From UHGV virus genome UHGV-0315315: 14,378 nucleotides of DNA; one strand, given 5' to 3'. Numbering within the stretch: the first letter of the stretch is position 1; each line of letters begins with the position of its first letter. Both the position numbers and the translations under genes were made by a program. The notes under the pieces are model-generated. The model made no database searches, had not been told where the DNA came from, and was given only the letters and a program-made list of their open reading frames with translations. Of the stretch, positions 1-14,378 are shown one piece after another. This stretch comes from a virus.

Positions 1-322
1 CTGCATGCATATATGGGTAGAAAGTATATGCAAGATGTGAGAAAAACACAGCAAGACAGGCGATACCTCTGAGACCGTCCGCATTACTATTGTGTTCTTG
101 AGCAACACTCATGAAAATTAACCTATGTTTAGAGTAATGTAGCCTAAAACGCCTAATCAAAAATAGGCGGATACCTTTGAGGCCATTCTAGCCTGAGGTT
201 AATCAAGATACCATTATGCTTTCATATCCAATCTGGCCGGAAGCGTCGCATCTGTTTCTCGCTAAGTATCAACGTAGTAAGCATCCATCAGCTCACTGAT
301 TATTCACTTTCTTAAAACTGCT
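1..322. other. Unassigned AT-rich flank beyond the point where sheath-gene homology ends (host DNA or another element)
   Basis: No ORF of 60 aa or more in any frame in the track; sheath-like translation diverges around 320-326; no recognisable tRNA or IS terminus by eye. Confidence 0.3.
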
Positions 323-577
323 AACAACAACCGTCACGGGTTTTGACTGGTCGGCAATTGCATCCAGCGAACGGGCCAGCGTGCCGGACTCGCCTGCTTT
401 ACCGCTGGCCTCCAGCACATCCGTCAGCAGAACCGGCTTATTGAGAGGGAACACGGACGCATCAGCATCATCGCCGGTGCAGACCATACCCACGATAGCA
501 GTGCTTACCGTGGTGAGGGAGCGGGTGCCGTCGTTAACTTCAACAACGCGCACCCCGTGGTGGTAATCCTGAGCCAT
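293..577 (-). pseudogene. FI: Truncated contractile tail sheath gene (P2 FI-like), N-terminal fragment only
   Basis: 94-aa ORF. N-terminus MAQDYHHGV...[10 protein letters not shown] follows the conserved N-terminus of P2-family sheath proteins (recollection, not searched). Similarity ends at about aa 85 and the frame stops 9 codons later (SSFKKVNNQ*). Full-length sheaths are several-fold longer. AGGAGG lies 6-11 nt upstream of the ATG at 577. Confidence 0.75.
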
Positions 578-653
578 AGTGGCGAACCTCCTGATTGGAT
601 TAGGCTTCGCCCTATGTTGAAGTGATTGTGCCTGACAAACAGCTAAGCGCAGT

Positions 654-671
654 TGTGTCGTTATTCACACA
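654..671 (-). promoter_or_regulatory. TGT-N12-ACA dyad, candidate Ogr/Delta-type late-promoter activator site upstream of the sheath gene (PF-like)
   Basis: tgtGTCGTTATTCACaca read directly at 654-671. Centre (~662) is ~85 nt upstream of the sheath ATG at 577, compatible with an activator site centred near -55 plus a ~30 nt leader. Confidence 0.4.
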
Positions 672-719
672 AAATAACGGTATTTGTCTGCTTGCAGGGA
701 TAATCAACATAATGCTGAT

Positions 720-1286
720 TCAGGGGGATTCATTGATCTTATTTGCCGGAAATTTTCTATAAATGGTAGAAACGCCTACATCAAAAATCAGTGCAATACG
801 CTGTCTTGATTCTCCGGCCTCGAGTAAACGCCCAATCTGTGCCCACTGTTCGGTGGTCAACTTAGGACGGCGTCCACCTACTCTGCCTTTGGCACGAGCT
901 GCAGCCAGCCCTGCCCTGGTACGTTCAACTATCAGTTCGCGTTCCATTTCAGCCAGGGCACCCATGACATGAAAAAAGAAACGGCCCATTGGGGTACTGG
1001 TATCAATACTGTCAGTCAGGCTTCTGAAATTCACACCACGCTGGCGCAACTCTTCTATCAGCGTAACAAGATGCCGCATACTGCGCCCCAACCTGTCCAG
1101 CTTCCAGACAACCAGCGTGTCTCCTGCCGATAGTGTCCTGAGTAGTTTTTTCAGCCCCGGTCTGTCGGACTTAGTGCCACTGATTTTGTCCTCAAAAATC
1201 CGCTCACATCCCGCGCAGTTCAGTGCATTACGTTGCAAATCGGTGTTCTGGTCATTTGTTGACACGCGTACATAGCCAATAAGCAT
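720..1286 (-). CDS. Serine DNA invertase (Gin/Pin/Cin/Hin family)
   Basis: Track ORF 720..1292 begins at a TTG; the first ATG is at 1286 (MLIGYVRVSTNDQ...). Catalytic-serine motif GYVRVSTNDQ of resolvase/invertase recombinases and a C-terminal HTH-like tail (GVSTIYRKF). Near-colinear with remembered Pin/Gin sequences. Confidence 0.9.
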   Translation of the reverse strand: MLIGYVRVSTNDQNTDLQRNALNCAGCERIFEDKISGTKSDRPGLKKLLRTLSAGDTLVVWKLDRLGRSMRHLVTLIEELRQRGVNFRSLTDSIDTSTPMGRFFFHVMGALAEMERELIVERTRAGLAAARAKGRVGGRRPKLTTEQWAQIGRLLEAGESRQRIALIFDVGVSTIYRKFPANKINESP

Positions 1287-1341
1287 GATCAATCCCCTGA
1301 ATAAAAACCGGGGATGATGCCAGTTAGCCGTTATCTCTGCA

Positions 1342-1367
1342 TTTTCATAAACGTTGGTTTTGGAGAA
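1342..1367. repeat. Left crossover site of the invertible segment (hix/gix-like 26-bp site)
   Basis: TTTTCATAAACG-TT-GGTTTTGGAGAA. Its reverse complement matches the site at 3088-3113 at 21 of 26 positions (hand alignment). Half-site resembles the TTATCAAAAACC-type consensus of Hin/Gin sites. Flanking similarity continues to about 1377. Confidence 0.7.
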
Positions 1368-1649
1368 GGTGCTAACTGGGTTATGTTACCTGGAGGAATG
1401 ATAATTCAGCGTGTTTATCTTGGATTTCCTATTGGCACCAATGCAAGACACATAACTTTCCCCCGGTCGTTTACAACAACGAACTATTCCATCTCAATTA
1501 ACTGGAATGATATCGGTACTGTAACAACTGAAACACAATCACCAGCAAATGTGGCGGTTGTTCATCAAACAAAATCATTAACAGGGGCCAGCATCTGGCA
1601 GGCAGGTCCCGGGGGATTTAATGTGGACATTATAGCGGTGGGGTATTGA
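1368..1649 (+). CDS. Alternative tail fibre C-terminal cassette (Hv'), silent in this orientation; no start of its own
   Basis: Reading frame runs through the left crossover site. The motif VGFGEGA here parallels LGLGEGA at H residues ~350-356, which overlaps the right crossover site. Would be joined to the constant part of H after inversion. The track Met at 1314 lies upstream of the site and is probably not used. Confidence 0.55.
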
Positions 1650-1650
1650 T

Positions 1651-2079
1651 ATGTACGTATGGAGCGCTAAATCAAATGGCTTTTTCCCCATATCGGAGAA
1701 AGAAAAATTTGAGGCATCAGGTCTGTGGCCTGATGATGGTGTAATAGTCAGTGAGGAAGAACATAAAAAGTTATTTATGGATATTCCACCAGGAAAACAG
1801 ATTGGAACACTGAATGGAAAACCAGCACTGATAGATATTCCTCAGCCGACCAAAAAGGAATTAATAGCTATTGCTGAAGTTAAAAAATCCCAATTACGGG
1901 AAAAAGCTGACAGTGAAATATCCTGGCGTCAGGATGCTGTTGATGCTGATATCGCAACTGATGAAGAAACTTCAACTCTCACCGAATGGAAGAAATACCG
2001 TGTGCTGCTGATGCGTGTTGATACTTCAACAGCACCCGATATTGAATGGCCTACGCCTCCGGCAGTTCAGGCCAGATGA
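1651..2079 (+). CDS. Alternative tail fibre assembly chaperone (Tfa'), partner of Hv'
   Basis: 142-aa ORF starting at an ATG that overlaps the Hv' stop (TGATATG). C-terminus ...[13 protein letters not shown] parallels the C-terminus of the minus-strand chaperone (...[13 protein letters not shown]), a conserved Tfa/gpG-type tail. Confidence 0.75.
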
Positions 2080-2644
2080 CATCCGGCGCGGTGCTGGTAT
2101 CTGTTGCCGTCACCGCGTCAATGTAATCCAGCACGGTGTTAAGTCGGGTTGTTTCTGCCTGAGTCAGTTTCCGTCCGGCCTGTAATTTCAGCTGAATCAG
2201 ACTAATGGAAGCCATTACTGCATCAATCAGTGACTGGCGCTGTGCTTCTGCTGCTTCTACTGCGGCACCGTGTTGTGCCTCAGTATCTGTCACCCATTTC
2301 TCACCATCCCATTTATCATATGGCGTTAACGGTGAAAGCGTGACATAACCGTTTTTGATGGCACCGATATAATCCACTGTAACAGCTGCGCCATTTTCTG
2401 TTGAGTAAACAGTCTCATTGCGATGGTCTTCTTCATGGCTCCATCCCTTACCCGTAAATACTGCCACTTTCCCCGGAATGTTTTCGCCCGGGTCAATACC
2501 AGTGGAACAGGCGGGCATACTTACGCCAGTATTAATATATTCATCAGACCAGCCCGTATACTCAGATGTTTCAGCATCATAATAAAAACAACGCATATCG
2601 CCCGGCACTGTGGCCAGCCCATTTTCATCAAAAACAGGTTTCAT
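2051..2644 (-). CDS. G: Tail fibre assembly protein (P2 G-like)
   Basis: 197-aa ORF. ATG overlaps the H stop (TAATG). Conserved Tfa C-terminal motif. Its 3' end overlaps the convergent Tfa' 3' end (2051-2079). Confidence 0.85.
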
Positions 2645-4149
2645 TATTTAGCCCTCACCAGAAAGTTAAATGCAATATTTCGCGGTCTGACAGCAACAAA
2701 ATTCACACCATCACCCACAGAGTTACTGGTGAAATTAAATCGTGAAAATCCTGGCTGATTTCCGGCGATGCCATCATGAAAGTTAATTGCGTGTCCCGCA
2801 CCTCCGCCTATATTCCCGGCAAACTGAGAAAAGTTTGTAGCTTCCTGCCAGCTTAATAATTCGCGACCACCGTCTGCACCTCGCCCGTCATCCCAGATAC
2901 GAATGAAATCACCGCGGGCTTCAGGTAATATCAGCGAAGGAAACACTTTCGCCAGCACAGGATAATCAGTGGCAGAGAATTTCGCGCCGTTGAACTTCAA
3001 AAACACCATACTGGACCAGCTGTCGATTACAGTATTTGGCATTGCAGCGGACGGCCAGAAGAACGGAACGCCAATAGCTGGAGCACCTTCTCCCAAACCA
3101 AGGTATGTGAGAAGACCAGCTACATCCTTTCCACTCAAATTGGTAAGCGTATTGTCCAGCGGTTGTTTACCTGCCAGCGCATTAAGCATTGTCGTGGCAA
3201 AGTTCGGATCATTCCCCAGTGCCGCCGCCAGTTCGTTCAGTGTATCCAGTGCAGCAGGTGCAGAACCCACCATTCCTGCAATCGCCGATTTCACAAAAGC
3301 CGTAGTGGCAATCTGTGTATTGTTGACCGACTGCGCCGCCGTGGGGGCTGTTGGCGTTCCGGTGAGTGCCGGACTCGACAACGGTGCTTTAAGTGCCAGC
3401 GCATTGTTAATGGTGGTACTGAAATTCGGATCATTGTTAATGGCTGCGGCTATTTCTTTCAGCGTGTCCAGCGTGGCTGGCGTACCATTAATAAGGGCCG
3501 TCAGTGCCGCCTGTACAAACGCAGTGGTCGCAACCTGCGTGGTATTATTCCCCGCCGCTGGCGTTGGCGCTTTGGGGGTTCCGGTAAATGTCGGGCTGGC
3601 TTTTGGCGCGTACTGTGAATGCGGGTCCGGTGCGGCAAGATGTTTTGCCATCTGATCATCCGCGTACACCTTCAGCTCCAGTGCCTTGTCATCCACATAC
3701 TTGCGGGTTGCCAGCACTACAGCAGGGTCGATTTTCAGGGTGATATTGTCCGTGCTGCTGGTAATCAGCACCATGCGCACGGTCTGAGTGCGCCCGCTAC
3801 CTTCAGCCAGTTGCGGCTTATAGCTTTCCGGGCAGTTGCCCACAGCAATCAATGCCCCGGACTCATCAAACAAGCCCACTTCACGTATCCACCAACCGCC
3901 CTCGTTTTCAGGGATCACCTGTTCGGCAATAATCTGGCTGCTGTTCTGCGGGTCGATATAAAGCATATTCAGCGCAGCCCGGCGTTTCTCATTTACCAGT
4001 GCCGTCTGCTTTGCGTCCGGCGTTGGCAATACTCCACCGCCATCGCCCACCGCCATATAGGTAATTTTTAGCGGCACACCGAGCGCGGCGGCGCTGGCAA
4101 GTTTCGCCGCGCCAATATCCGTCAGCAGGGTATAAAATTTTGTGCTCAT
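2644..4149 (-). CDS. H: Tail fibre protein (P2 H-like): constant N-terminal part plus currently fused variable tip
   Basis: 501-aa ORF. Repeated ...NNTQ(V/I)ATTAFV... units typical of phage tail fibre repeats. Position upstream of the chaperone gene; crossover site embedded at codons ~346-354. Confidence 0.9.
   Translation of the reverse strand: MSTKFYTLLTDIGAAKLASAAALGVPLKITYMAVGDGGGVLPTPDAKQTALVNEKRRAALNMLYIDPQNSSQIIAEQVIPENEGGWWIREVGLFDESGALIAVGNCPESYKPQLAEGSGRTQTVRMVLITSSTDNITLKIDPAVVLATRKYVDDKALELKVYADDQMAKHLAAPDPHSQYAPKASPTFTGTPKAPTPAAGNNTTQVATTAFVQAALTALINGTPATLDTLKEIAAAINNDPNFSTTINNALALKAPLSSPALTGTPTAPTAAQSVNNTQIATTAFVKSAIAGMVGSAPAALDTLNELAAALGNDPNFATTMLNALAGKQPLDNTLTNLSGKDVAGLLTYLGLGEGAPAIGVPFFWPSAAMPNTVIDSWSSMVFLKFNGAKFSATDYPVLAKVFPSLILPEARGDFIRIWDDGRGADGGRELLSWQEATNFSQFAGNIGGGAGHAINFHDGIAGNQPGFSRFNFTSNSVGDGVNFVAVRPRNIAFNFLVRAK
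3088..3113. repeat. Right crossover site of the invertible segment, inside the H coding sequence
   Basis: TTCTCCCAAACC-AA-GGTATGTGAGAA; inverted relative to 1342-1367; central AA dinucleotide as in hix-type sites. Confidence 0.7.
3157..3603. repeat. Tandem duplication (~222 bp, ~74 codons, two copies) inside the tail fibre gene
   Basis: H residues ~184-257 and ~258-331 are two diverged copies (SPTFTGTPKAPTPAAGNNTTQVATTAFV...DPNFSTTINNALALKAPL versus SPALTGTPTAPTAAQSVNNTQIATTAFV...DPNFATTMLNALAGKQPL). Corresponding DNA direct repeats are visible on the plus strand. Confidence 0.7.
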
Positions 4150-4751
4150 GGATTCACTCTCATTGTGTCAATAACATGGACCGCCCCGCCTTCATGCGCG
4201 GTGCCACCGGAAATAATCGTTTCGTTGATATACGGATAGATCGTGATTTCTTCGCCAAGATAGCTGGCGGCTCCCACCCAATGCGGGCCGCTGGTCTGCA
4301 GATTGATGGACATGCCGATCATGTGGCGGCTACATGGTTTGGCATCGCTTATCAGTCGCTCAAGTTCCAGATAGGTATCTTCAGTGATGCCCTGGTCCTG
4401 CACGCCGATATCCAGGCGAAACGTGCCCGGTGTTTCTCCGGTCTGCCACCACTCAATAATGCGGATCAGGAATCCGAACGGTTCCACCACCCGCCGCACG
4501 GCACTGGTGGTTCCTTTATGCTGATGAATATAAAAAGCATCCTTCACTACCTGGCGTTTGACGCTTTCTGTCCAGCCCTCGTCCCAGCGATCCACAGAGA
4601 ACGCCCAGGCGAGATAAGGCAGGAAGCTGACCGGACAGGTAGCCGGATTCCACAAGTCACGCAGCGGCACCTGCAAATCAGAAATCCCGCTACAGGTTTG
4701 CGCCAGTCGGCGCTCCAGTGAAGTTGAACCCGGTGGCAGCAGACTATTCAT
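4146..4751 (-). CDS. I: Baseplate assembly protein (P2 I-like)
   Basis: 201-aa ORF, ATG start, 4-nt overlap with H start; gene order J-I-H; family recalled from sequence. Confidence 0.85.
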   Translation of the reverse strand: MNSLLPPGSTSLERRLAQTCSGISDLQVPLRDLWNPATCPVSFLPYLAWAFSVDRWDEGWTESVKRQVVKDAFYIHQHKGTTSAVRRVVEPFGFLIRIIEWWQTGETPGTFRLDIGVQDQGITEDTYLELERLISDAKPCSRHMIGMSINLQTSGPHWVGAASYLGEEITIYPYINETIISGGTAHEGGAVHVIDTMRVNP

Positions 4752-5652
4752 CCGTTCCTCCGTTGGTTACGCTCCACTGCGTACATGATGCCGCCTGTGT
4801 TTTGTTCAGGACCACATCCGCCAGCGGAGAAGCCAGTTCCACACGTTGAACACCCTCAACATGCAGAGCAGCAAAGATGGCGCTACGGCGAATATCCCGA
4901 CCAAGCCTCGTCTGGCTGGCAATGTACTTCTGCAGACTGGCTTTTGCCGCTGCCATTACCGGCTCTGCTTCCGGTCCCGGATAGAGAAAAATGGTGGCAT
5001 CCACGCGATACGGGATTATTTCTGCGCTGCGAACCGTAAGACGGTCAGCCACCGGGCGGACGTTCTCACTGTTCAGAGCTTTTTCCACCACATCCAGCAG
5101 GTCTTTTTCTGCTGTTCCGTCGCCTTCGCGGCTAAGGACAGTCAGCACCACCTCTGCAGGAGCCGGACTGGTTGCACTGGCATCCGCCACCCGACCGTCG
5201 GCGCTTCGGGCATGAAATTCATAAGCTGCGGTTGGCCCCGCAACTGAAAGCCCCTCAAAGGCTGCAGGCACACGCAGGCGTAACGCTTCATCGCTTTCCA
5301 TCACAGCCGCAACGGGCGGCACAGCGTCATTATCAGCAGGCGTCACCGTCAGGCGTTTCACGTTGTAGTTGGCAGCGATCTGGTCAAGATCGCCGCCCAT
5401 CGCGTAAGCCACCATTACCGCCTGCGCGGCTTCGTTAATGCGCTGGCGCAGAAGCAACTCACGGTAAGCGTTCTCCTGCAACAATTTGGTGACGGGTTCA
5501 GATTCCAGTTCCAGCGTGCGGATCACTGCTTCCTGCTCATCTTTCGGATGAAGCGCAACAAATTCGGCCTTGCGTTCGGCAAGCAGCGTCTCAAAGTCCG
5601 GCACATCGACAATCTGCGGCGCAGGCAACTGCGAAAGGTCAATCACTGCCAT
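4744..5652 (-). CDS. J: Baseplate assembly protein (P2 J-like)
   Basis: Track ORF extends to a GTG at 5691. Preferred start is the ATG at 5652 (MAVIDLSQLPAP...) with AGGAG 7-11 nt upstream. Confidence 0.85.
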   Translation of the reverse strand: MAVIDLSQLPAPQIVDVPDFETLLAERKAEFVALHPKDEQEAVIRTLELESEPVTKLLQENAYRELLLRQRINEAAQAVMVAYAMGGDLDQIAANYNVKRLTVTPADNDAVPPVAAVMESDEALRLRVPAAFEGLSVAGPTAAYEFHARSADGRVADASATSPAPAEVVLTVLSREGDGTAEKDLLDVVEKALNSENVRPVADRLTVRSAEIIPYRVDATIFLYPGPEAEPVMAAAKASLQKYIASQTRLGRDIRRSAIFAALHVEGVQRVELASPLADVVLNKTQAASCTQWSVTNGGTDE

Positions 5653-5998
5653 TCTCTGCTCCTGTTGATACGGAAAGGGAAACAGGCACACCGTTATTAC
5701 GCCGCCCGGTCAGCCCCACCACCATTGAACCGTCAAAATTGCTTTTAATGGTGATGGAATCCAGCGTCAGCCGTGGCTCCCAGCGACTCAGCGCCACATA
5801 CACTGCCGACATGACCTGCAGGCGTAATGCCGGATTTTGTGGCTGGTCTATCAGTGCCGACAGCAGGGAACCATATTCCCGACGGGCAATGCGGCTACCC
5901 TGCGGCGTCAGCAAAATGTCCCGCACCGACTGGCGCAGATGGTCAATATCAGTAATGGCTTTACCGCTGGTATTGTTCATCCCGCTATAAAGCGTCAT
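5639..5998 (-). CDS. W: Baseplate wedge protein (P2 W-like, gp25 / lysozyme-like fold family)
   Basis: 119-aa ORF; ATG overlaps the V stop (ATGA); size and position typical. Confidence 0.85.
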   Translation of the reverse strand: MTLYSGMNNTSGKAITDIDHLRQSVRDILLTPQGSRIARREYGSLLSALIDQPQNPALRLQVMSAVYVALSRWEPRLTLDSITIKSNFDGSMVVGLTGRRNNGVPVSLSVSTGAENGSD

Positions 5999-6573
5999 AC
6001 CGGGCCTCCGGTTGTGTCGCCGCCTTTCAGGACGCCAGTATGCTGATGTGCATCAACCACAATTCCGTTAGAACTCATTGCACCGCCGCCCTGGGTAACA
6101 CCACCATTGATCACTACTTCGCTGTTAATGCGTGTGCGGTCAGCCTCCAGTACAAACTCACTGGTTTTCAGGGTGATGTTGTCGGCAGCTTCAATGACCA
6201 TGGATTTGATTCCCCTGACATACCAGCGCCCGGTAGCGGGTTCGTATTCAAACCAGCCACCGTCAGGATGTTCTGTCACACAGGCGTCCACCGACGCCGA
6301 CGGTGGTGCGAACTGATTCGAATAGACAGCGGGCAGCGCAAAGGCGGTTTCCAGATTGCCGCCCAGACTCAGCAGCACCACCTGCTCACCTTCCGATGGT
6401 CGCCACCATGTGCGGGCATTACCCGCGCGCAGCGTCAGCCAGTTAATCCAGTTGGTTTCAAGGTCGCCCGTTTTCACCCGACAAAGCCAGTGTTCCCGGT
6501 CCACTTCGGTGACTACACCAGTGCGGATCAGGTTGGTGATAAGGCGCATGATTTCGGTTAATTGTGCGTTCAT
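5995..6573 (-). CDS. V: Baseplate spike / assembly protein (P2 V-like)
   Basis: 192-aa ORF; N-terminus MNAQLTEIMRLITNLIRTG resembles remembered P2 V; first gene of the V-W-J-I-H-G block. Confidence 0.85.
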   Translation of the reverse strand: MNAQLTEIMRLITNLIRTGVVTEVDREHWLCRVKTGDLETNWINWLTLRAGNARTWWRPSEGEQVVLLSLGGNLETAFALPAVYSNQFAPPSASVDACVTEHPDGGWFEYEPATGRWYVRGIKSMVIEAADNITLKTSEFVLEADRTRINSEVVINGGVTQGGGAMSSNGIVVDAHQHTGVLKGGDTTGGPV

Positions 6574-6619
6574 AATTTAATCATGCCGAGATAAGATTGA
6601 TAAAAAAACTCTTTAGTTT

Positions 6620-6637
6620 TGTGCCAGTTATGATACA
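6620..6637. promoter_or_regulatory. TGT-N12-ACA dyad in the divergent V / ATPase intergenic region; possible late-promoter activator site (PV-like)
   Basis: tgtGCCAGTTATGATaca read directly. Located where a PV-type promoter is expected, but its centre is only ~55 nt from the V ATG, so spacing is not canonical. Confidence 0.25.
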
Positions 6638-6673
6638 AAGTGCATTTACTCATGGACTAAATAAAGGATTCCT

Positions 6674-7933
6674 ATGTTTAGATTATCTAGTGTCAAGATT
6701 GAAGGTTTTTGGGGAAGACTAAATGCATCATGTTCATTTAATGAAGATGTAAATATTATTATTGGTCGAAATGGGACCGGTAAAACAACCTTTATGAATA
6801 TTCTTCACTCAGTTCTGGCATTAGAACTCGAATCACTAAATGAGAATAGTTTTGATAATGTAACAATAAAAATAAAAGAAGGAAGCAAAACTAAAACAAT
6901 AAAAGTTGTGAGTAAATTTGACATAACTAAAGCTTTGCCTACGTTTGAATATACAATTTCTAGAAAGAAATATATTATCAGATCCTTTGAAGATCGTAGA
7001 CTACCTATTTATATGAGGAGAAAATATCAGGAAGACGTTGAAAAACTTAAATTAGAGTTAGATAAATTAGTTGCTTTATCTTCTCTATCAGTTTACCGAC
7101 TTAGAAGCGGTGAAGATTTTGAAATCAGAGACAAATATGGCTCAAAATTAATCAACCCTGTTGATTACCGATTAGAACAATTATTGCAGAACCTAACAAA
7201 ATATCAACTTTATTTATCACAAAGAGCTCGTGATGTTTCTGCAATATTACAGAAAGAGGTTCTTGCTTCTATTCTTTATAGTAAAGAAGATGGTATCGAT
7301 GACACATTTAACTTTTCTTTTGATAAAGAAAAAGAACGTAGAAATTTAATAGCTGCATATTCTCAGCTTGGAGCTTTTGATAGTGATGTCAGAAAGAAGA
7401 TTAACTTTCACGTTGAATCTATTGCCAAAACATTTGAAGAATTACGACTTGCAGAAAAAAATAACAGAAATATTTTAAATGTAGATTACAGATCATTTGA
7501 GGCATTACGAAAGACGCAAAGAATTATAAAGATGTCTTTAAAATCCGAGGAGAAAATAAAAAACATATTTCTTCCTATAAATCTATTTTTAGAAACATTA
7601 CATGAGTTCATAACCGATAAAAAATTTAATTTTATCTCCGGTGAGCTAGTAATAGAAAACGAGCATGGGCCGATTAGCCATAGTAATTTATCGTCTGGTG
7701 AAAAACAGCTATTAATTCTTTTTATTGAAACTTTGCTACAGCAAAACAAACCTTTCATCTATCTTACTGATGAACCAGAATTATCGCTACATATTGCATG
7801 GCAACGAAAAATAATACCTGCAATCAAACAACTTAATCCTAATGCGCAAATTATCGCCGCTACGCATTCACCAGAAGTGGCTTCTAAATATCGAAATGCA
7901 ATCTTTGATATGGAGAAATTGGTTCATGGATGA
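6674..7933 (+). CDS. ariA: ABC-type ATPase (AAA_15/AAA_21-like, SMC/OLD-related); AriA-like component of a PARIS-type defence system
   Basis: 419-aa ORF. Walker A GRNGTGKTT (6764-6790), ABC signature-like LSSGEKQ (7688-7708), Walker B FIYLTDEPE (D366/E367 at 7769-7774), H-loop AATHSPE. K/E-rich probable coiled-coil insert between the lobes. AGGAT 5-9 nt before the ATG. Strongly AT-rich compared with flanking phage genes. Confidence 0.7.
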   Translation: MFRLSSVKIEGFWGRLNASCSFNEDVNIIIGRNGTGKTTFMNILHSVLALELESLNENSFDNVTIKIKEGSKTKTIKVVSKFDITKALPTFEYTISRKKYIIRSFEDRRLPIYMRRKYQEDVEKLKLELDKLVALSSLSVYRLRSGEDFEIRDKYGSKLINPVDYRLEQLLQNLTKYQLYLSQRARDVSAILQKEVLASILYSKEDGIDDTFNFSFDKEKERRNLIAAYSQLGAFDSDVRKKINFHVESIAKTFEELRLAEKNNRNILNVDYRSFEALRKTQRIIKMSLKSEEKIKNIFLPINLFLETLHEFITDKKFNFISGELVIENEHGPISHSNLSSGEKQLLILFIETLLQQNKPFIYLTDEPELSLHIAWQRKIIPAIKQLNPNAQIIAATHSPEVASKYRNAIFDMEKLVHG

Positions 7934-8777
7934 TTTCCATTATTCTGCCGAAGCAGAAAATGTAATGAATTTATTTTACCAAGCTGAAGCCATGGTTTAT
8001 GTTGAAGGCCCAGATGATATTTGCTTTTGGGAAATCATCTTTAATAAAGCTAGTTCATTAAAGGTTGAAATCAAAGATGTTGGCGGCTGTGAAGAATTAA
8101 AAAAATATATTGATAGAGTTACTGATGAAGATCTTCAAATTATAATTGCATGTGATGCAGACTTCACTACATTTGAAAATGAGGAAAACGCTGATAGTCG
8201 CATTGTAAAAACTTATGGGCACTCCATCGAAAACACGTTTATTGACAAAACAGGCATATATAAGGCAATAAAAACTCTCGGAAAATTACCTCAAAAGATA
8301 ATGAACGATGTCAACGTCGATTCTTGGACAGAAGACTTTTATACCAAAATGGAACCCCTAATAAAACTTGATATATACAATCATATTTATAGAAAAGGCA
8401 TTTCAGTTATTGGTGACAGTGCAGATCGTTTCATGAAATCTAGAAAATCAAATGAAATTTGCGAGCAAAAAATCACGAGTTACAAAAACACCATCATTGA
8501 AAAATTAGGTGTGGAACCAGATAACATCGATTCATCTTTCAAATCAAAATCGATAGAATACAGAAAGTGGCTTAGAGGTCATTTTCTTTTTTCTGCAGTA
8601 CATAGGTACATTAGCACAACTGCAGAAAAAAATGGAAAAAAAGTATCCTTATCATATGAATCATTATATTCCAATTTAATGAATACATTTGAATCTAATT
8701 TTACCAATGCTCATATTGAGTTTAATCATTACCACGAAAAAATTAAAGCCATAAATATGCCACACGAAATGAAATAA
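7926..8777 (+). CDS. ariB: Toprim / DUF4435-like protein (OLD-family nuclease-like); AriB-like effector of a PARIS-type system
   Basis: Track ORF starts at an internal in-frame ATG at 7842 inside the ATPase gene. Preferred start is the ATG at 7926 overlapping the ATPase stop (ATGGATGA) with GGAG ~10 nt upstream. Candidate Toprim acidic residues: E in YVEGPDD (8004-8006) and DxD in IIIACDADF (8154-8162). No HNH or zinc-finger pattern seen. Confidence 0.6.
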   Translation: MDDFHYSAEAENVMNLFYQAEAMVYVEGPDDICFWEIIFNKASSLKVEIKDVGGCEELKKYIDRVTDEDLQIIIACDADFTTFENEENADSRIVKTYGHSIENTFIDKTGIYKAIKTLGKLPQKIMNDVNVDSWTEDFYTKMEPLIKLDIYNHIYRKGISVIGDSADRFMKSRKSNEICEQKITSYKNTIIEKLGVEPDNIDSSFKSKSIEYRKWLRGHFLFSAVHRYISTTAEKNGKKVSLSYESLYSNLMNTFESNFTNAHIEFNHYHEKIKAINMPHEMK

Positions 8778-8779
8778 GA

Positions 8780-8799
8780 AAAAATACAGATGTATTTTT
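8780..8799. terminator. Candidate bidirectional hairpin between the convergent Toprim gene and S
   Basis: aaaaataca-ga-tgtattttt, a perfect 9-bp inverted repeat followed by a T-run on the plus strand. The stem is A/T-only, so predicted stability is low. Confidence 0.25.
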
Positions 8800-8802
8800 A
8801 TA

Positions 8803-9249
8803 TTATTTAGATAACCATTCAAATAGGGTATCCTTGATTTGATAATATTCTTTATCGTGGATACCCAATAGCTTACGCTCTGCGTAACGGACCTCAGGTC
8901 CTTTGCGACTGACGCGATCACGCAGGCCGTAGTGATGAACGCGGGCAATGCGCTGCACCTTGCCTTCAAACTGCACGCTGGCAGAATCGGCGCTGGCGGC
9001 AGTTTTCAGGTATTTTGTGGTGCGCAGCTTCGCAAACATCTGACGTTTAATGCGGCCTTTTTTACTGCGTGCTGTTACCCGTCGCGGTTCATAGCTGCTG
9101 CCGTCAGGGTTGCGCTGCATCCTGATATTCTGCTGCTGTGTCCGGCGAAGTTCCTGCGCCAGTTGGCGCATCATACGGCTTCTTGCGGCTGGCTCCAGAT
9201 TCGCCAGCAAGGCACTCAGCCAGTCGTCCACCTTCTGCAATTCAGCCAC
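8803..9249 (-). CDS. S: Tail completion / virion morphogenesis protein (P2 S-like)
   Basis: 148-aa ORF; start codon is GTG at 9249, overlapping the R stop; family recalled from sequence. The last ~20 codons lie in AT-rich sequence. Confidence 0.8.
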   Translation of the reverse strand: MAELQKVDDWLSALLANLEPAARSRMMRQLAQELRRTQQQNIRMQRNPDGSSYEPRRVTARSKKGRIKRQMFAKLRTTKYLKTAASADSASVQFEGKVQRIARVHHYGLRDRVSRKGPEVRYAERKLLGIHDKEYYQIKDTLFEWLSK

Positions 9250-9673
9250 GTTTCACCGTCCACATTTCTTCAGGTTCATCGGGTTCCGCTACAGCTTCAA
9301 CGCTGGACACTGTGCCGTCAGTGCTGACCAGCACACGTTCCGTCAGTTGCAGGTTAAGGCTGATATCACAGACATCGTTGCGCAGAATATCCACCTCAAA
9401 GGTGAATAACTTTTCCCGTAAAGCGGGATTATTGATGGCATCGGGCTGGTTATCACGCAGCCACAGCAAAACCGGGGCCATCAACAGATTCTGGTCACCA
9501 CTGAAATCCTCTATCACCACGTTCAGGGTGTAGCGGTACTCCCATGACATGGAGCTGGCCCCCGTGGCAACCAGCGAACCGTTATCCACAAACAGATGCA
9601 GTTTGTCCGGGTTATTACGGACATAAGGCACTGCTTTATTAAGGGCGTGGCGCAGGGATTGTGGTTTGTTCAC
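9242..9673 (-). CDS. R: Tail completion protein (P2 R-like)
   Basis: Track ORF begins at a TTG (9694). Preferred start is the GTG at 9673 (VNKPQSLRHAL...) with AGGAG ~7 nt upstream. Confidence 0.8.
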   Translation of the reverse strand: MNKPQSLRHALNKAVPYVRNNPDKLHLFVDNGSLVATGASSMSWEYRYTLNVVIEDFSGDQNLLMAPVLLWLRDNQPDAINNPALREKLFTFEVDILRNDVCDISLNLQLTERVLVSTDGTVSSVEAVAEPDEPEEMWTVKRG

Positions 9674-9926
9674 TGTTTCGCTCCTGACACGCAATAATCA
9701 TGTCCACTTTGTCTGCACAGACCGCCCAGGCGGCCTCCGTTTCATCCAGCAATGCGTTCAGATCACCGTTAGTGCGCGGCGCTGTCTGATCCAGCCGACA
9801 CGGCGTCACTCGCGGACAACCACTGACGGTAAGCTGCACCTCCGGTGAGTGCCGGACGTTCCCGCAGCCGGATAATGTCAGCAGGCAAAGGAGTATCAGC
9901 CCAGCGGCGTAAATCCTCGTTCTCAC
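9639..9926 (-). CDS. lysC: Outer-membrane lipoprotein spanin (LysC / Rz1-like), overlapping the 3' part of lysB in another frame
   Basis: 95-aa ORF, GTG start; signal peptide with lipobox LTLSGC; Pro-rich C-terminus; overlaps lysB (9769-9926) and the R start. Confidence 0.6.
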   Translation of the reverse strand: MRTRIYAAGLILLCLLTLSGCGNVRHSPEVQLTVSGCPRVTPCRLDQTAPRTNGDLNALLDETEAAWAVCADKVDMIIACQERNSEQTTIPAPRP

Positions 9927-10197
9927 GTTTCAGTTCCTCGATCCGGCGTTGTCGTTGTCTCAGCTGTGCGCTGGTCTGTTCTGCTTCGGCATAGAGCCGC
10001 GCCTGCTCCCGGTTATTAGTTTCAGTCAGAATGGACAGGCTGATAAGCTGGCTGTTGCTCTTTGCCAGTGCCTGACTTTTGCTCTGCAGCTCGTCTGCCT
10101 GCGTGCTGATGGTCTGGCTGGCATCAGCCAGCCGCCACGTCTGCCAGCCCAGCGCCGCCAGTAATAACGCCAGCACAACCAGCAGCAACCGGTTCAT
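9769..10197 (-). CDS. lysB: Inner-membrane spanin (LysB / Rz-like)
   Basis: 142-aa ORF; N-terminal transmembrane helix (LLLVVLALLLAALGW) followed by a charged coiled-coil-like region; ATG overlaps the lysA stop (ATGA). Confidence 0.7.
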   Translation of the reverse strand: MNRLLLVVLALLLAALGWQTWRLADASQTISTQADELQSKSQALAKSNSQLISLSILTETNNREQARLYAEAEQTSAQLRQRQRRIEELKRENEDLRRWADTPLPADIIRLRERPALTGGAAYRQWLSASDAVSAGSDSAAH

Positions 10198-10571
10198 GCT
10201 GCTACCTGTTGCGCCATCTGATTACGGGTGATCCAGAAGGCAATAACGGTCAGTAGATAAAAGACCAGGGTAATAGCCCACCCCGTCCAGGCGAGACTTA
10301 CGACAATCAGCAATCGCATCACCCAGCTGATAAATACGTTTTCTTTTCGGGTAATGGTCTTCAGCAAAGATGCCCTCAACTCCTGCCAGAGCGAGCCATT
10401 CTTAATTAACGCAGCCAGTGCTACCGGAATTACCGCCCATGTCAGTAAACAGGCTACCCAAACGCCGGACGCTGCCAGTACCGGAAAAATCCCCTGCGGA
10501 TACACCATTGCTGCAATTAACAGCGCCATCCATAACATCAGAAACAGCCCGCTGATTAATTTCTTTTTCAT
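10194..10571 (-). CDS. lysA: Lysis-timing membrane protein (LysA-like)
   Basis: Track ORF extends to 10643. Preferred start is the ATG at 10571 (MKKKLISGLF...) directly after the endolysin stop. Multiple hydrophobic helices. Confidence 0.6.
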   Translation of the reverse strand: MKKKLISGLFLMLWMALLIAAMVYPQGIFPVLAASGVWVACLLTWAVIPVALAALIKNGSLWQELRASLLKTITRKENVFISWVMRLLIVVSLAWTGWAITLVFYLLTVIAFWITRNQMAQQVAA

Positions 10572-10572
10572 T

Positions 10573-11085
10573 TCAGTTTGCTCCCTGTAAACACCAGGCC
10601 ATCTCCCGCGCACGGCGGTTATCCAGCCCCTGATTAAACACACCTTTCACATAAACCCAGCGCGGTAACTGTCGGCACGCATCCGCCCAGCGCCGCTGAT
10701 TGAGCAATTTCACCAGTGTGGAACTGCAGGCATTGCTAGTTCCCACGTTGAAGGCAAACGACACCGTAGCGTCATACACCTTCTGTGGTGGCTGTTGCTT
10801 CACACACCTTTCCAGTGCCCGCTCCACACGCAGCACGTTGGAGATCAGCCCTTCTGCTGCCTGTCGTTCCGTGATTGTTTTGCCGGGAATGACGCCCGAT
10901 GTATTACCAATGCCGTCGGTCCAGACACCCGCGCTGCACTGATACGGCTGCAGACGACAGCCTTCGTAATCGGCAATCAGTTTCAGCCCTTCCACGGACG
11001 TATGAAGCTGCTGAAAGCCCGGCAGCGTGGCAGCAATAGCCAGCACGGCCCCGACAAGGCAGCGTTTAACGACTGATGGATTCAT
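10573..11085 (-). CDS. Endolysin, T4/P21-type lysozyme with SAR-like N-terminus
   Basis: 170-aa ORF. Weakly hydrophobic Gly/Ala-rich N-terminal segment (CLVGAVLAIAATLPGF) followed by the lysozyme catalytic region EG...D...GVWTDGIGNT. Resembles P21 R-type SAR endolysins (recollection). Confidence 0.85.
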   Translation of the reverse strand: MNPSVVKRCLVGAVLAIAATLPGFQQLHTSVEGLKLIADYEGCRLQPYQCSAGVWTDGIGNTSGVIPGKTITERQAAEGLISNVLRVERALERCVKQQPPQKVYDATVSFAFNVGTSNACSSTLVKLLNQRRWADACRQLPRWVYVKGVFNQGLDNRRAREMAWCLQGAN

Positions 11086-11281
11086 AGTCCTCCCGCGAGA
11101 TCTGCCCGTCGCGCAGAAGCTGGTAGGCTTTGTGTTTGTAGTACCAGTTGATAGCCAGCATCAGCACACCAATCATCAGGCCGCCCAGCGTTGAGATATC
11201 CTTGATGGACAAATCGCCCAGCCAGGCCAGCACGACGGCGATGCAATACGTGATAAAGGCGCTGATTCGCTCAAGCGTCAT
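11066..11281 (-). CDS. Holin, two transmembrane helices (class II / pinholin-like)
   Basis: 71-aa ORF immediately upstream of the endolysin, overlapping its start by 20 nt; two hydrophobic helices and a charged C-terminus. Confidence 0.7.
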   Translation of the reverse strand: MTLERISAFITYCIAVVLAWLGDLSIKDISTLGGLMIGVLMLAINWYYKHKAYQLLRDGQISREDYESISR

Positions 11282-11284
11282 AAT

Positions 11285-11488
11285 TCAGTCCCATAGCTGG
11301 ACGGTCTGCACGGTGGTGGTTGCCGGAATGTCCGGCAGCTCCACCTGCAGCCCGTGAGGTAAAAAGGGGCCGTATTCGGCAAGCCCCGGATTTGCCTTCA
11401 GTACCTGCTCCGTGACACCCTGCGTGCGCCCGTAATGACGCCAGCAAAGCGCGTCCACCGTGTCATACTGATGCGCACGCACTTTCAT
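11285..11488 (-). CDS. X: Tail protein X (P2 X-like, LysM-like)
   Basis: 67-aa ORF, MKVRAHQYDTVDALCWRHYGRTQGV...; closely parallels remembered P2 gpX; ATG overlaps the L stop. Confidence 0.85.
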   Translation of the reverse strand: MKVRAHQYDTVDALCWRHYGRTQGVTEQVLKANPGLAEYGPFLPHGLQVELPDIPATTTVQTVQLWD

Positions 11489-11952
11489 CAGATAAGCTCC
11501 ACTGTGCAGTGCGGCGCATCCTGCACCCGGCTGATGGCCCAGCGGGCGTCACGCCACAAATCACCGCTTGCTTCCGCCAGTTCCTCGCCTCGCTTCACAC
11601 CGGACGCCGTGGCGTCATAGTCCTGATAACGCTCGTTGAGCATGGCGCGTGCCCAGCAGTAAACCGCGTTGAAATAGTGCTGAATGCGCTCACTTTTGCC
11701 GTCCAACTGTTCCGCCGGAACCTCAGCCAGCGACGCATACCCCAGCATCTGCTGACGTCTGCGAAACTCATACAGCTCTGCGTTGACCTCCGAAATTGCC
11801 GATAGCGCAACCTGCTTTAAACGCGGCTGCGTCACCGTGCCGTCAGTGCGCATCACACTGCGAAACTCCGACAGGTCCACATCAGGCCAGAACGGCGTAT
11901 TTCTGATGATTTCCGCCTGTTCCGGTGCCTGTTCTGGCGCAACAAACTTCAT
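11488..11952 (-). CDS. L: Head completion / stabilisation protein (P2 L-like)
   Basis: Track ORF extends to 12015. Preferred start is the ATG at 11952 (MKFVAPEQ...) with AGGAGA ~8 nt upstream. Confidence 0.85.
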   Translation of the reverse strand: MKFVAPEQAPEQAEIIRNTPFWPDVDLSEFRSVMRTDGTVTQPRLKQVALSAISEVNAELYEFRRRQQMLGYASLAEVPAEQLDGKSERIQHYFNAVYCWARAMLNERYQDYDATASGVKRGEELAEASGDLWRDARWAISRVQDAPHCTVELI

Positions 11953-12047
11953 GCTGCTTTCTCCTGAAATAAAGGGCGGTGGACGGGGTTTTGATGTGGC
12001 AGAGCCTTTCGCCACCCCGTGCCGCCCGTGCGCGGGGGCACGTTCTG

Positions 12048-12698
12048 TCAGCGGCTGTCATTGCGCAGTCTGCGCTCCAGCTGCTGTTTGTCTTTTTTCA
12101 CGCCACAGCGGGGATCGAGCTGTAACGCATGGTTGAGATGATTAAGGGCGAAAGCCGGATTGCTTTCACTCAGGACTGCGCCAATCGCTTTATGCAGACG
12201 CGCCCGTGACTGGTCCGGCATATCCAGATCGTCTGTCAGTTCCAGCGTCTGCAGCAACAGATCAGCATCAAAGCCGATGGCGGCAAGCATTGCGCTCTGC
12301 GCTGCGTCTGCCATTTCCTCTGCCAGCACGGTCTGCACGTTGCGGTTACCCAGCGGCATCACCCAGCCATGACGCAGGGCATGACGCCCGATCTCCAGCG
12401 CCCCGGCATAATCTCCGGCATCAATGCGCCACAGCATCACGTACATCAGCACGTCATCCTGCTGTGCGCCTCCGGCAGCCAGGACACCCTCCGCCCAGGC
12501 GGCGTACTTCGGCAGCAGCTCCACTTTGATTTCCGCTTTTTTGACCGTGGACTGAACGCCCTTGAGACGGCGGCGGTCTTCCGCCAGTTGCAGCAGCATC
12601 AGGTCATAGCCCGACGCGTGGCGAACACTGCCGCCCTCGCGGGCGGCCTGTTCAGCCTGAACGCGCAGGCGATGCTGCCGTGCGGGACTCAGGCTCAT
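12048..12698 (-). CDS. M: Terminase small / endonuclease subunit (P2 M-like)
   Basis: 216-aa ORF; conserved ...LMYVMLWRIDAGDYAGALEIGRHAL... core recalled from the P2 gpM family; position between N and L. Confidence 0.85.
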   Translation of the reverse strand: MSLSPARQHRLRVQAEQAAREGGSVRHASGYDLMLLQLAEDRRRLKGVQSTVKKAEIKVELLPKYAAWAEGVLAAGGAQQDDVLMYVMLWRIDAGDYAGALEIGRHALRHGWVMPLGNRNVQTVLAEEMADAAQSAMLAAIGFDADLLLQTLELTDDLDMPDQSRARLHKAIGAVLSESNPAFALNHLNHALQLDPRCGVKKDKQQLERRLRNDSR

Positions 12699-12701
12699 GG
12701 T

Positions 12702-13757
12702 TTATGCTCCGGCTTCTGCGGCGGTGCTGAAGTCGCCAATCTGGATGTTTTCCACCAGTGCTGCGCAGCGGTAGTCCTCAACCACATAGGCTTCGTTAAC
12801 GGATTCAAAGTTTTCAATCCGGTCACGTTTCGGGTTGTCGATAACTGAACGGCGGCGGGTGTCTTCCTGCCAGTAGATGGACAGGTTATCCAGACGGGTG
12901 ATCAGCAGCGCATTCGGCGGGAAGAACGGCGCACGCACGGCCTGCAGGCCACCCATGCGTTTCTGGCTGATGATCATATCGGCAGCCAGTTTTTCACTGT
13001 TTTCCTGCTCTTTGTTGACCAGCGGGAAATACTTATCAGACAACAGTTCACGACCGCAAATCACCACCAGATCGTCATCGTCCTGGTAGACCACGTCGAT
13101 AAGCTCATTAACGGCATCCATCACCACGGCGTCCAGGTTGGCATATTCGCCACCTTTACCGACTTTCACCGCGCCCGGTGTGGTTTCACCGCCCGTGGTG
13201 GTGCTGCCCATGACGTGATCCGGTGCATCCTCACGGATTTTCTGCAGCCAGCCTTTATTCACATCCTGCAGCAGCGGGTTTTCGCTACGGTTGGAGGTTT
13301 TCGCACGCTTCACGCCGTTAAAGCCGATCATGATGCGGTCCAGTGCCTGACGTTTCACGATGGCGTCACGGATACGCACCTGAAAATCCTGAAACTTCGC
13401 CCACAGGTCCAGCTTCGCGTAGGTCAGCACCGTGTCAAAGTTGGTCTGCTCGCATTTATATTCCACATCGACCATCAGCGTCGGATCGACAGGTTCACGC
13501 TCTTTCGCGGTGGTATCAGTGGTTCCGGCAATGGTGCTGCCAACTCCCAACCCCAGCAGCTGACCGGACTGCTCAGTCACTGGCGTGACGTTAATCAGCG
13601 TCAGGAAAGCGGCGGACTGCTGGATCTGGTCTTCCAATGTCTGCTGCACGGACGGCTCTACGGTGAACTTACTGGAGAGTTCTTCAATCTCCACACCATT
13701 CAGGCGCGCCAGCTGCTGCAGGTAAGCGTTAAAGGCAAAGCGGGTTTTCTTTTTCAT
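12702..13757 (-). CDS. N: Major capsid protein (P2 N-like)
   Basis: 351-aa ORF, ATG start (MKKKTRFAFNAYLQQLA...); length and position typical of the P2 capsid protein. Confidence 0.9.
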   Translation of the reverse strand: MKKKTRFAFNAYLQQLARLNGVEIEELSSKFTVEPSVQQTLEDQIQQSAAFLTLINVTPVTEQSGQLLGLGVGSTIAGTTDTTAKEREPVDPTLMVDVEYKCEQTNFDTVLTYAKLDLWAKFQDFQVRIRDAIVKRQALDRIMIGFNGVKRAKTSNRSENPLLQDVNKGWLQKIREDAPDHVMGSTTTGGETTPGAVKVGKGGEYANLDAVVMDAVNELIDVVYQDDDDLVVICGRELLSDKYFPLVNKEQENSEKLAADMIISQKRMGGLQAVRAPFFPPNALLITRLDNLSIYWQEDTRRRSVIDNPKRDRIENFESVNEAYVVEDYRCAALVENIQIGDFSTAAEAGA

Positions 13758-13773
13758 CGGGTTTTATGCTCCA

Positions 13774-14378
13774 TCAGCAATTGGTCAGGGTGCCTGCCGG
13801 TGCGTCACCGCCCGGCGCGCGCTGGCGGTAATCCTTGCGGCTGTCTTCAATGCTCAGCTTTTGCTCAAGCTCGGCAAAGGCGGCCTGCTGCTCCTGCAGG
13901 GAGGACTCCAGCTCAGAAAGGCGCTGCTCCTGATCGGACAGGGATTTTTCCGTGCGCTCACTCAGGTTCTGCTGCTCAGTAGCGACCAGCTCCACGGCTT
14001 TATGCACATCAGAGAATCGCGCATCGTCGGTCTGCTCTTTTTTGGTGAACAACGCGGTGACGCGGGCAAAGAGGGACGGCTTTTCGTCCTGGGCTTCTTC
14101 GAGTTCGATCAGCGTTTCTTCGGCAGCGGTAAACAGGTTTTCAGGATTCTGCTTACGGTTTGCCAGCGGGTTATGTGCGGCACTGGCGCTGAATGCCAGC
14201 ATTTCGGTGCCGAGACTTGCCGGATCATCTGTTGCCGCCAGCCCCACAAGATAGGCTTTACCGGTGTCAGCAAACTTCGGGCTGACCTCCATGGAGGTAA
14301 ACAGCTTCTGGCCTTTTTTCACCAGTGCCACCAGGGAGTCTGTCGGTTCAACATCGGCGTAAAGTGCCATCTTGCCCG
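13774..14378 (-). CDS. O: Capsid scaffolding protein (P2 O-like), 5'-partial: continues past the right edge of the window
   Basis: Open frame continues upstream of the track Met at 14370 to the window end. C-terminus ...GGDAPAGTLTNC matches the conserved scaffold C-terminus. The visible ~200 codons are the C-terminal part of a longer protein. Confidence 0.85.
   Translation of the reverse strand, partial: GKMALYADVEPTDSLVALVKKGQKLFTSMEVSPKFADTGKAYLVGLAATDDPASLGTEMLAFSASAAHNPLANRKQNPENLFTAAEETLIELEEAQDEKPSLFARVTALFTKKEQTDDARFSDVHKAVELVATEQQNLSERTEKSLSDQEQRLSELESSLQEQQAAFAELEQKLSIEDSRKDYRQRAPGGDAPAGTLTNC

Follow-up and report, generated by a model that had tools for sequence, protein, structure and literature searches.

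In the window analysed here, the whole stretch of 14,378 nucleotides from virus genome UHGV-0315315, a tail-fibre gene faces a second, oppositely oriented fibre tip and a recombinase gene, which raises the question whether the two tips are alternatives exchanged by DNA inversion and, if so, whether this copy can perform the exchange. We read the region, with a probability of about 0.9, as a switch of the Pin/Gin type in a P2-like E. coli prophage, in which site-specific inversion toggles the tail-fibre operon between two states. An inversion switch had already been proposed from the letters alone (hereafter the sequence-only reading), and that proposal is supported by the analysis below. The kind of switch is already known, and the locus is an ordinary phage DNA switch.

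Prophage context

The late genes follow the order V-W-J-I-H-G-(cargo)-FI, as in phage P2 (NC_001895). The longer P2 series O N M L X Y K lysA/B/C R S V W J I H G FI was found along with its protein families on combining the open reading frames of the window, Pfam assignments for L007 (a complete relative, the prophage of GCA_916175175.1, 99.2% identical), the RefSeq annotation of L001 and a comparison with P2. Judged from this gene content, the host element is a P2-like (Peduoviridae) E. coli prophage. P2 itself has a fixed H tip served by one chaperone (G), and its G-FI interval is occupied by fun(Z); in the window a silent tip cassette and an invertase gene take that place.

A fibre gene with two tip cassettes

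The constant N-terminal part of H (3101-4149, minus strand, ~350 aa) occupies the same place in both orientations of the segment. It belongs to the Pfam family Phage_tail_fib (E = 3e-64), and residues 1-354 of H are 50% identical to residues 1-364 of P2 H; past residue 354 no similarity to P2 H was found, which sets the boundary between the constant and variable parts at the right crossover site. The expressed variable tip (2644-3100, minus strand, ~151 aa) is StfE-like, with residues 350-500 of H showing 41% identity to StfE of e14, and it matches the C-terminal end of phrog_3100 (E = 2e-54). The chaperone for this tip is encoded next (2051-2644, minus strand), a TfaE-like Tfa protein of 197 aa that matches Caudo_TAP (E = 5e-27) and phrog_105 (E = 9e-84) and is 62.6% identical to e14 TfaE.

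The alternative tip resides in a silent cassette on the plus strand (1344-1649), encoding ~97 aa past the crossover with a gp53-like C-terminal domain (PF21882 Gp53-like_C, E = 5.5e-6, which passes the curated cut-off) and matching the C-terminal ends of phrog_2557 and phrog_1396. The sequence-only reading had described a startless frame with a VGFGEGA motif at this position. The motif is indeed present, the left site opening a frame that reads ..NVGFGEGA.., but the frame does not strictly lack a start, being open from an in-frame ATG that precedes the left site by 28 nt (1314). RefSeq names the equivalent ORF 'gp53-like domain-containing protein'; with ATG 1314 included the frame still encodes a C-terminal tip only. 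A second Tfa-type chaperone had also been claimed to follow, and it is recognised here as a 142-aa protein (1651-2079, plus strand) by Caudo_TAP (E = 7e-34) and phrog_188 (E = 4e-55); in L001, L003 and L004 the gene after the gp53-like tip likewise encodes this protein, WP_000289820.1. The sizes given earlier (tips of ~150 and ~95 aa, chaperones of 197 and 142 aa) agree with those found. The two tips are of unrelated families, both matching the C-terminal ends of tail-fibre families. Within the segment the two tip cassettes converge. Downstream of each tip comes its own chaperone gene of the Tfa/U type, and the 3' ends of the two tfa genes overlap by 29 bp.

Crossover sites and the two orientations

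The left 26-bp recombination site (1342-1367, TTTTCATAAACGTTGGTTTTGGAGAA) is pix-like, with the crossover dinucleotide TT at 1354-1355. The right site (3088-3113, TTCTCCCAAACCAAGGTATGTGAGAA) lies within codons 346-354 of H, where the LGLGEGA motif begins at residue 350, and has its crossover dinucleotide AA at 3100-3101. The two crossover points are separated by 1746 bp, the invertible segment (1355-3100). In inverted orientation the 26-bp cores match at 21/26 positions and differ at the other 5/26. Imperfect inverted sites of this similarity, their central AA/TT and the location of the right site at LGLGEGA had all been reported from the first inspection, and all three were recovered. A repeat search of 600-4300 gave, as the longest inverted repeat, the arms 1342-1373 and 3082-3113 (32 nt, 84% complementary). 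An ungapped scan scored this arm pair at 27/32, and the best pair per shuffle in 60 dinucleotide-preserving shuffles reached 20-23 (mean 21.6). The similarity of the sites, whose significance had been left to be checked by alignment, therefore exceeds that in every shuffle. The left site agrees with the pinE-proximal pix of e14 at 25/26 positions, the reverse complement of the right site agrees with the pix in e14 stfP at 23/26, and L003 carries the same pair of 26-mers.

From what is known of the recombinase family, dimers of the invertase would bind both 26-bp sites, and host Fis, bound to an enhancer that the invertase gene contains in its 5' part, would bring them into a synaptic tetramer. 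Both sites would then be cleaved at the central AA/TT dinucleotide, and after a 180 degree turn of one subunit pair religation would leave bases 1355-3100 inverted. The two states can be read from the sequence. In the present one, the late operon V-W-J-I-H expresses a 501-aa H composed of the constant 350 residues and the 151-aa StfE-like tip, followed by the 197-aa TfaE-like chaperone; in the inverted state, the constant part is joined in frame to the 97-aa gp53-like tip to give a 447-aa H', followed by the 142-aa chaperone.

Inverting 1355-3100 in silico produces this 447-aa H' in frame, with the gp53-like tip and then the 142-aa chaperone, as had been anticipated when an exchange of tip and chaperone was proposed. 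The predicted protein is identical at 444 of 447 residues to an annotated tail protein of NZ_AP022215.1 (L004), in which the gp53-like tip is fused to the constant part of H, and one E. coli genome contains the predicted flipped junction in a single piece of 1401 nt that is 99.6% identical. On aligning the window with L004, 1342-2332 is reversed and both flanks run forward, with breakpoints within the sites. The alternative orientation proposed earlier is accordingly present in public E. coli genomes, and the flipped state exists in nature. The prophages of L003 and L004 are 99.8-99.9% identical and differ by exactly this inversion, the reversed block measuring 1814 bp at 99.8% identity. Their inner half-sites, which a T/G difference at position 20 of the site tells apart, are swapped, and their outer halves are fixed, so that the exchange maps to the site core. 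This comparison shows both states in near-identical prophages with a reciprocal exchange of half-sites. The reciprocal junction, with the invertase beside the StfE-like tip, was found in 237 genomes.

As a separate observation, noise in the CUVET23-RF4 assembly (L002) coincides exactly with the invertible segment, which is suggestive only.

Invertase and putative enhancer

The serine DNA invertase gene (720-1286, minus strand, 188 aa) has its start codon 55 bp from the left site. The protein contains the Resolvase domain (PF00239, residues 5-137, E = 2e-53) and HTH_7 (PF02796, residues 140-183, E = 1.5e-15), its residues 1-184 align with the Gin structures 3UJ3/4M6F (E = 1e-92), and it matches phrog_125 'DNA invertase' (E = 7e-101). 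Bit scores of 312 with Gin versus 122 with gamma-delta resolvase, together with identities of 86.7% to PinE and 74.6% to Gin, substantiate the earlier claim that a Gin/Pin/Hin-family invertase abuts the left site. In Fis/enhancer-dependent invertases, Q151/R154/L155 of Hin are reported to be uniquely conserved, along with basic residues at 47, 48 and 51 (K47/R48/K51) (PMC3798978). The window invertase carries K46, K47, R50, Q150, R153 and L154, which correspond to the Hin numbering minus one. By its domains, identities, residues and sites, the recombinase groups with the Fis/enhancer-dependent Gin/Hin/Cin/Pin subfamily of small serine recombinases.

A putative recombinational enhancer may be placed at the 5' end of the invertase gene (1202-1265, minus strand), where two G-N13-C 15-mers occur at gene nt 22-36 and 71-85. 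Both recur at the same codon positions in pinE of e14 and gin of Mu; over nt 1-130 the gene is identical to pinE at 114/130 positions and to gin at 97/130. For these comparisons, as for those of the sites, the Mu and e14 sequences themselves were used. Kahmann reportedly located the Mu enhancer within gin in 1985. A loose Fis-consensus scan for site pairs 48 bp apart had no discrimination. Terminator-like matches, looked for together with sigma-70 promoters, showed no enrichment. By analogy with Mu G, P1 C and e14 P, inversion would probably depend on Fis and such an enhancer, and the two states would be expected to differ in adsorption specificity.

Whether the window copy is still active

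An inherited architecture could also persist without inverting, if the invertase were no longer expressed or the sites had diverged, in which case the second cassette would be a silent fossil; we consider such a frozen switch unlikely. It would account for sites that are only 21/26 alike, for a simple sigma-70 scan that found no promoter-like site upstream of the invertase, for apparent damage to the prophage at the sheath gene and for five contigs with an identical H protein, whose orientation is necessarily that of the window, as the two that were aligned confirm. Imperfect sites, however, are normal in this family; the pix sites of e14 also differ from each other, and both 26-mers of the window are identical to those of an element observed in both orientations. 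The invertase ORF is full length with the catalytic Ser9 in VRVSTND, and its product is identical at 186 of 188 residues to the invertase of that same element. Additionally, e14 still inverts despite being defective, at about 50:50 (PMC4272514 Table S1). With the sites of L003 and an invertase 2 aa away from that of L003/L004, the window copy looks competent for inversion.

The damage itself concerns the tail-sheath gene that adjoins the invertase, which is cut off at ~323 at a junction with foreign P2-like DNA and encodes a product of 94 aa; from this the prophage copy in the window seems truncated in the sheath gene. Exact matching of the 323/324 junction, and of a 24-mer from 1-113, against genome contigs gave no hit, nor did an exact search with the 94-aa sheath product. 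The junction was considered as a product of the invertase and rejected, there being no pix-like sequence at that point, and hence it carries no footprint of the window invertase. If the junction is real, the prophage would be defective, lacking the sheath and all that lay beyond, and would make no tails; the switch would then be a vestige like that of e14, and host-range switching may be without consequence in this genome. A tail-less phage would in that case have kept its invertase intact, along with the sites and two complete cassettes. Under these circumstances there would be a very slim chance that the invertase is maintained by the host for a task in trans, either flipping related segments of other resident prophages or promoting larger rearrangements between P2-like prophages. 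In Salmonella, Fin of Fels-2 acts in trans on hix.

Origin of the repeat and number of sites

The inverted repeat might owe its existence to coding sequence, as a by-product of convergent homologous fibre genes that share G-x-G-E-G-A rather than a site of recombination, with any inversions between genomes arising through rare RecA-mediated or illegitimate recombination. The best-conserved part of the repeat, the inner arm TTGGTTTKGGAGAAGGTGC common to both sites (exactly 2 occurrences, 0.02 expected), is indeed coding in both arms. The outer half of the left site, on the other hand, falls in the non-coding stretch that separates the cassette from the invertase and nevertheless matches the outer half of the e14 pix at 12/12 positions. 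Over its full length the 26-mer conforms to the pattern of invertase sites and shows dyad symmetry about the central AA/TT, only 55 bp separate it from a dedicated Pin-family invertase, and the exchange between L003 and L004 falls at the site core. An imperfect repeat of 32 bp is moreover far below the length usual for a RecA substrate. With all this against it, a coding by-product has scarcely any credence.

Similarly, we give scarcely any probability to a shufflon-like system in which several sites generate more than two fibre variants, as in the three-repeat P2-like locus of E2348/69 or the Min system of plasmid p15B. Such P2-like loci do exist (PMC4272514), one EPEC locus having three repeats and four states, whereas the 14.4-kb window as a whole has two tip cassettes and exactly two occurrences of the degenerate invertase-site pattern, for which 200 shuffles give an expectation of 0; a shufflon with at least three crossover sites is ruled out for the window, barring further sites beyond its ends. 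A tyrosine-recombinase inverton is ruled out by the serine type of the recombinase.

Comparison with known systems

The inversion switch proposed for the window shares with Mu G, P1 C and e14 P an in-fibre site at the constant/variable boundary, two cassettes and an in-frame fusion. The kinship to these three segments suggested by the sequence-only reading was right as to type, and the nearest relative proved to be e14 P with PinE rather than Mu G. The P segment of e14 (stfP/tfaP, tfaE/stfE, pinE), a defective prophage of E. coli K-12, has the same convergent tfa genes overlapping by 29 bp, the tip cassettes flanking them and the invertase beside the silent one. The resemblance extends to the invertase (86.7%, PinE), the sites (25/26 and 23/26), the 197-aa chaperone (63%, TfaE) and the expressed tip (41%, StfE). 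Unlike the lambdoid e14, the host element here is a P2-like myovirus prophage with a P2 H-like constant part; the gp53-like tip has no e14 counterpart, and the 142-aa chaperone is only 33% identical to TfaP.

Inversion has been measured in e14 and, by sequencing and PCR, in P2-like prophages of EPEC E2348/69 (Goldberg 2014; PMC4272514 Table S1), the latter at NC_011601.1 2977580-2979467 and 1891695-1893703. The locus at 2977580 has the order tip/Tfa200, Tfa146/gp53-like tip, invertase and sheath, like the window; the E2348/69 invertases are 80-82% identical to that of the window, and the site TTTTCTTAAACGTTGGTTTGGGAGAA matches at 24/26 positions. The cassettes, in contrast, have diverged, with chaperones 44-59% identical and tips without a blastp match.

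The logic of Mu G is also alike, with a constant part Sc, alternative tips Sv/Sv' with U/U' chaperones, an invertase gene abutting the segment (Gin, 74.6% identical) and a 26-bp site with the same half-site outline. The Mu G segment, unlike that of the window, is ~3 kb long with perfect 34-bp repeats and belongs to a different phage family; comparison of Mu S/S' with the window tips gave no detectable similarity. The P1 C segment with Cin follows the same logic as Mu G. Hin of Salmonella, acting on hix, belongs to the same recombinase subfamily with the Fis/enhancer mechanism, and its Fis/enhancer-contact residues are conserved in the window invertase. Hin flips a promoter, whereas the window system would exchange the 3' end of a coding sequence.

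Implications

The locus adds little by way of discovery. It is a further instance of a textbook phage host-range switch, and sequenced E. coli genomes contain this element at 99% identity as well as hundreds of its variants. Its consequences for annotation are more practical. The 111-aa 'gp53-like' ORF and the second tfa are to be annotated as the silent half of H, not as separate genes, and cultures of mixed orientation can garble assemblies at the segment. Host-range prediction from the tail fibres of P2-like prophages should weigh both H and H'.

Genomic setting of the switch region

The window holds the late region of an E. coli P2-like prophage; on the minus strand its genes run O, N, M, L, X, holin, lysozyme, lysA/B/C, R, S, V, W, J, I, H and tail-fibre chaperone. 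An E. coli assembly contains a complete P2-like prophage to which positions 324-14149 align without gaps at 99.2% identity. The switch region sits between H, which encodes the tail fibre, and the sheath gene FI, the interval in which phage P2 has the cargo gene fun(Z). Elsewhere, between gpS and gpV, a position known as a P2 cargo hotspot, lies a PARIS-type anti-phage defence pair of an AAA ATPase and a DUF4435 protein (6674-7933 and 7926-8777, both on the plus strand), matching AriA (E = 6e-40) and AriB (E = 2e-24) in PADLOC.

Recombination sites

The sequence-only reading had proposed imperfect inverted 26-bp sites at 1342-1367 and 3088-3113, and both repeat search and alignment bear out the agreement of their cores at 21 of 26 positions. 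Extended to 1342-1373 and 3082-3113, the arms form the longest inverted repeat in 600-4300 (32 nt, 84%); their 27/32 matches are significant against 60 dinucleotide-preserving shuffles, whose best 32-nt inverted matches ranged from 20 to 23. Within the 14.4-kb window there are exactly two occurrences each of a degenerate invertase-site pattern and of the shared inner arm, against an expectation of ~0. The central dinucleotides are TT on the left (1354-1355) and AA on the right (3100-3101), in line with the central AA/TT of the earlier reading. Taken in one and the same sense, the two sites thus share their central dinucleotide, a requirement for inversion by serine recombinases.

The right site was correctly placed inside H at the LGLGEGA motif: it covers codons 346-354, and the motif runs from residue 350. 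The left site lies at the opening of the plus-strand frame of the silent tip, which carries the VGFGEGA motif; to call this frame startless was literally incorrect, an incidental ATG being present at 1314. For comparison, crossover sites were taken from the fetched sequences of e14 and Mu. The left site, TTTTCATAAACGTTGGTTTTGGAGAA, agrees with the pix site next to pinE in e14 at 25/26 positions; the right site, read as its reverse complement TTCTCACATACCTTGGTTTGGGAGAA, agrees with the pix site in e14 stfP at 23/26. The repeat might be a mere echo of the shared peptide motif; against this, the left site has a non-coding outer half that is identical to its e14 counterpart, which argues that the repeat is more than such a reflection. 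By their sequence, the two window sites are pix sites.

Invertase and candidate enhancer

Near the left site lies, as the earlier reading held, an invertase gene of the Gin/Pin/Hin family (720-1286, minus strand), encoding 188 aa with Resolvase and HTH_7 domains. The product aligns end to end with crystal structures of Mu Gin (E = 1e-92), shares 86.7% identity with e14 PinE and 74.6% with Gin, and carries Ser9. Residues K46, K47, R50, Q150, R153 and L154 are equivalents of Hin residues reported to be specific to Fis/enhancer-dependent invertases (PMC3798978). A candidate enhancer consists of two G-N13-C 15-mers at nucleotides 22-36 and 71-85 of the gene, in the same codons as in pinE and gin. 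A terminator-like hairpin (1306-1325, minus strand) followed by TTTATT separates the left site from the start of the invertase gene and is suitably placed to keep late-operon transcription from reading through into that gene; in the scan that included this hairpin, terminator-like hits were not above shuffle level.

Alternative tips and chaperones

Two convergent chaperone genes with Caudo_TAP domains lie within the invertible segment, at 2051-2644 (minus strand) and 1651-2079 (plus strand), the latter being the second Tfa-type chaperone that had been anticipated. Their 3' ends overlap by 29 bp (2051-2079), as do those of the convergent tfaP and tfaE in e14, and a conserved C-terminal ..DTSTAPD..WP.. 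motif is encoded on both strands. A tip cassette lies ahead of each chaperone gene. The tip that is expressed resembles StfE (41% identity to StfE; phrog_3100 C-terminus, E = 2e-54), whereas a gp53-like C-terminal domain (PF21882, E = 5.5e-6) marks the silent one. The constant part of H, residues 1-354, shows 50% identity to P2 H, the homology ending at the site. A 99% identical copy of the region in NZ_CP145714.1 (14045-15550) illustrates how automatic annotation mishandles such switches: RefSeq splits H into two partial pseudogene fragments and lists the silent tip on its own as a 'gp53-like domain-containing protein'.

Evidence for inversion

In-silico inversion of 1355-3100 produces an in-frame, 447-aa product, H', ending in the gp53-like tip. 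The predicted flipped junction (1401-nt query) was matched in a single piece, at 99.6%, in E. coli WP8-S17-ESBL-05, where the annotated tail protein is identical to H' at 444/447 residues. Between the window and this genome both flanks run forward and 1342-2332 is reversed, with breakpoints at 1342-1369 and 3082. The prophage of WP8-S17-ESBL-05 recurs, 99.8-99.9% identical, in E. coli CUVET23-CCU12 with an 1814-bp block reversed. In this pair the inner half-sites are reciprocally swapped (T/G marker, position 20) and the outer halves are fixed, which is the signature of site-core exchange. Both window 26-mers are identical to the CUVET23-CCU12 sites, and the window invertase differs from that of the pair by 2 residues.

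The reciprocal junction, with the invertase adjoining the StfE-like tip, was found in 237 complete genomes; the gp53-like cassette is silent beside an invertase in 79 genomes and fused to a window-type H constant part in 5. In E. coli CUVET23-RF4 (NZ_CM172035.1, 2371-4183), from the same study as CUVET23-CCU12, the consensus becomes noisy and indel-rich over precisely the invertible segment, both flanks being clean, and the segment is flipped relative to sibling isolates of the same lineage. Mixed-orientation reads in the sequenced culture are the likely cause, the noise being no more than suggestive of them. The earlier observation is confirmed and its interpretation as an invertible tail-fibre segment is supported.

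Proposed mechanism and relation to known systems

Two pix-type sites, an adjacent Pin-family invertase, an in-frame exchange of cassettes, and near-identical elements that occur in both states and differ by exchange in the site core are direct observations. From knowledge of the family, an enhancer within the first ~100 nt of the invertase gene would bind Fis, which would activate a synaptic tetramer, which would cut at the central dinucleotide, its subunits then rotating by 180 degrees. By analogy with Mu, P1 and related systems, and with the two tips being unrelated folds, inversion would change specificity.

This kind of system is already established, as is its presence in P2-like prophages of E. 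coli. Goldberg et al. 2014 (PMC4272514) used sequencing and PCR to measure inversion in e14, with 51% in the forward orientation, and in two EPEC E2348/69 P2-like prophages. One EPEC locus (2977580-2979467) has a window-like layout of tip/Tfa200, Tfa146/gp53-like tip, invertase and sheath, with an invertase 80% identical to that of the window and a site matching at 24/26; the invertase of the other locus is 82% identical. The Z/fun hotspot often contains a DNA invertase, accompanied by inversion of the neighbouring tail-fibre genes, according to a 2024 preprint on P2-like hotspots.

Left junction and possible consequences for the prophage

Positions 1-323 are foreign to the prophage. At 99.1% identity they match the 5' end of a cargo gene of the acyltransferase family, together with the sequence upstream of it; this gene lies in the G-FI interval (between tfa and the sheath gene) of a different E. 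coli P2-like prophage, e.g. in NZ_AP027709.1. At ~323/324 this DNA is joined in opposite orientation and without visible homology, reducing FI to a 94-aa ORF (293-577, minus strand). The junction, which occurs in no other genome searched, reflects either a genuine rearrangement involving two P2-like prophages or a chimeric assembly. In the first case the prophage is defective, and its switch would matter as little for host range as that of e14.
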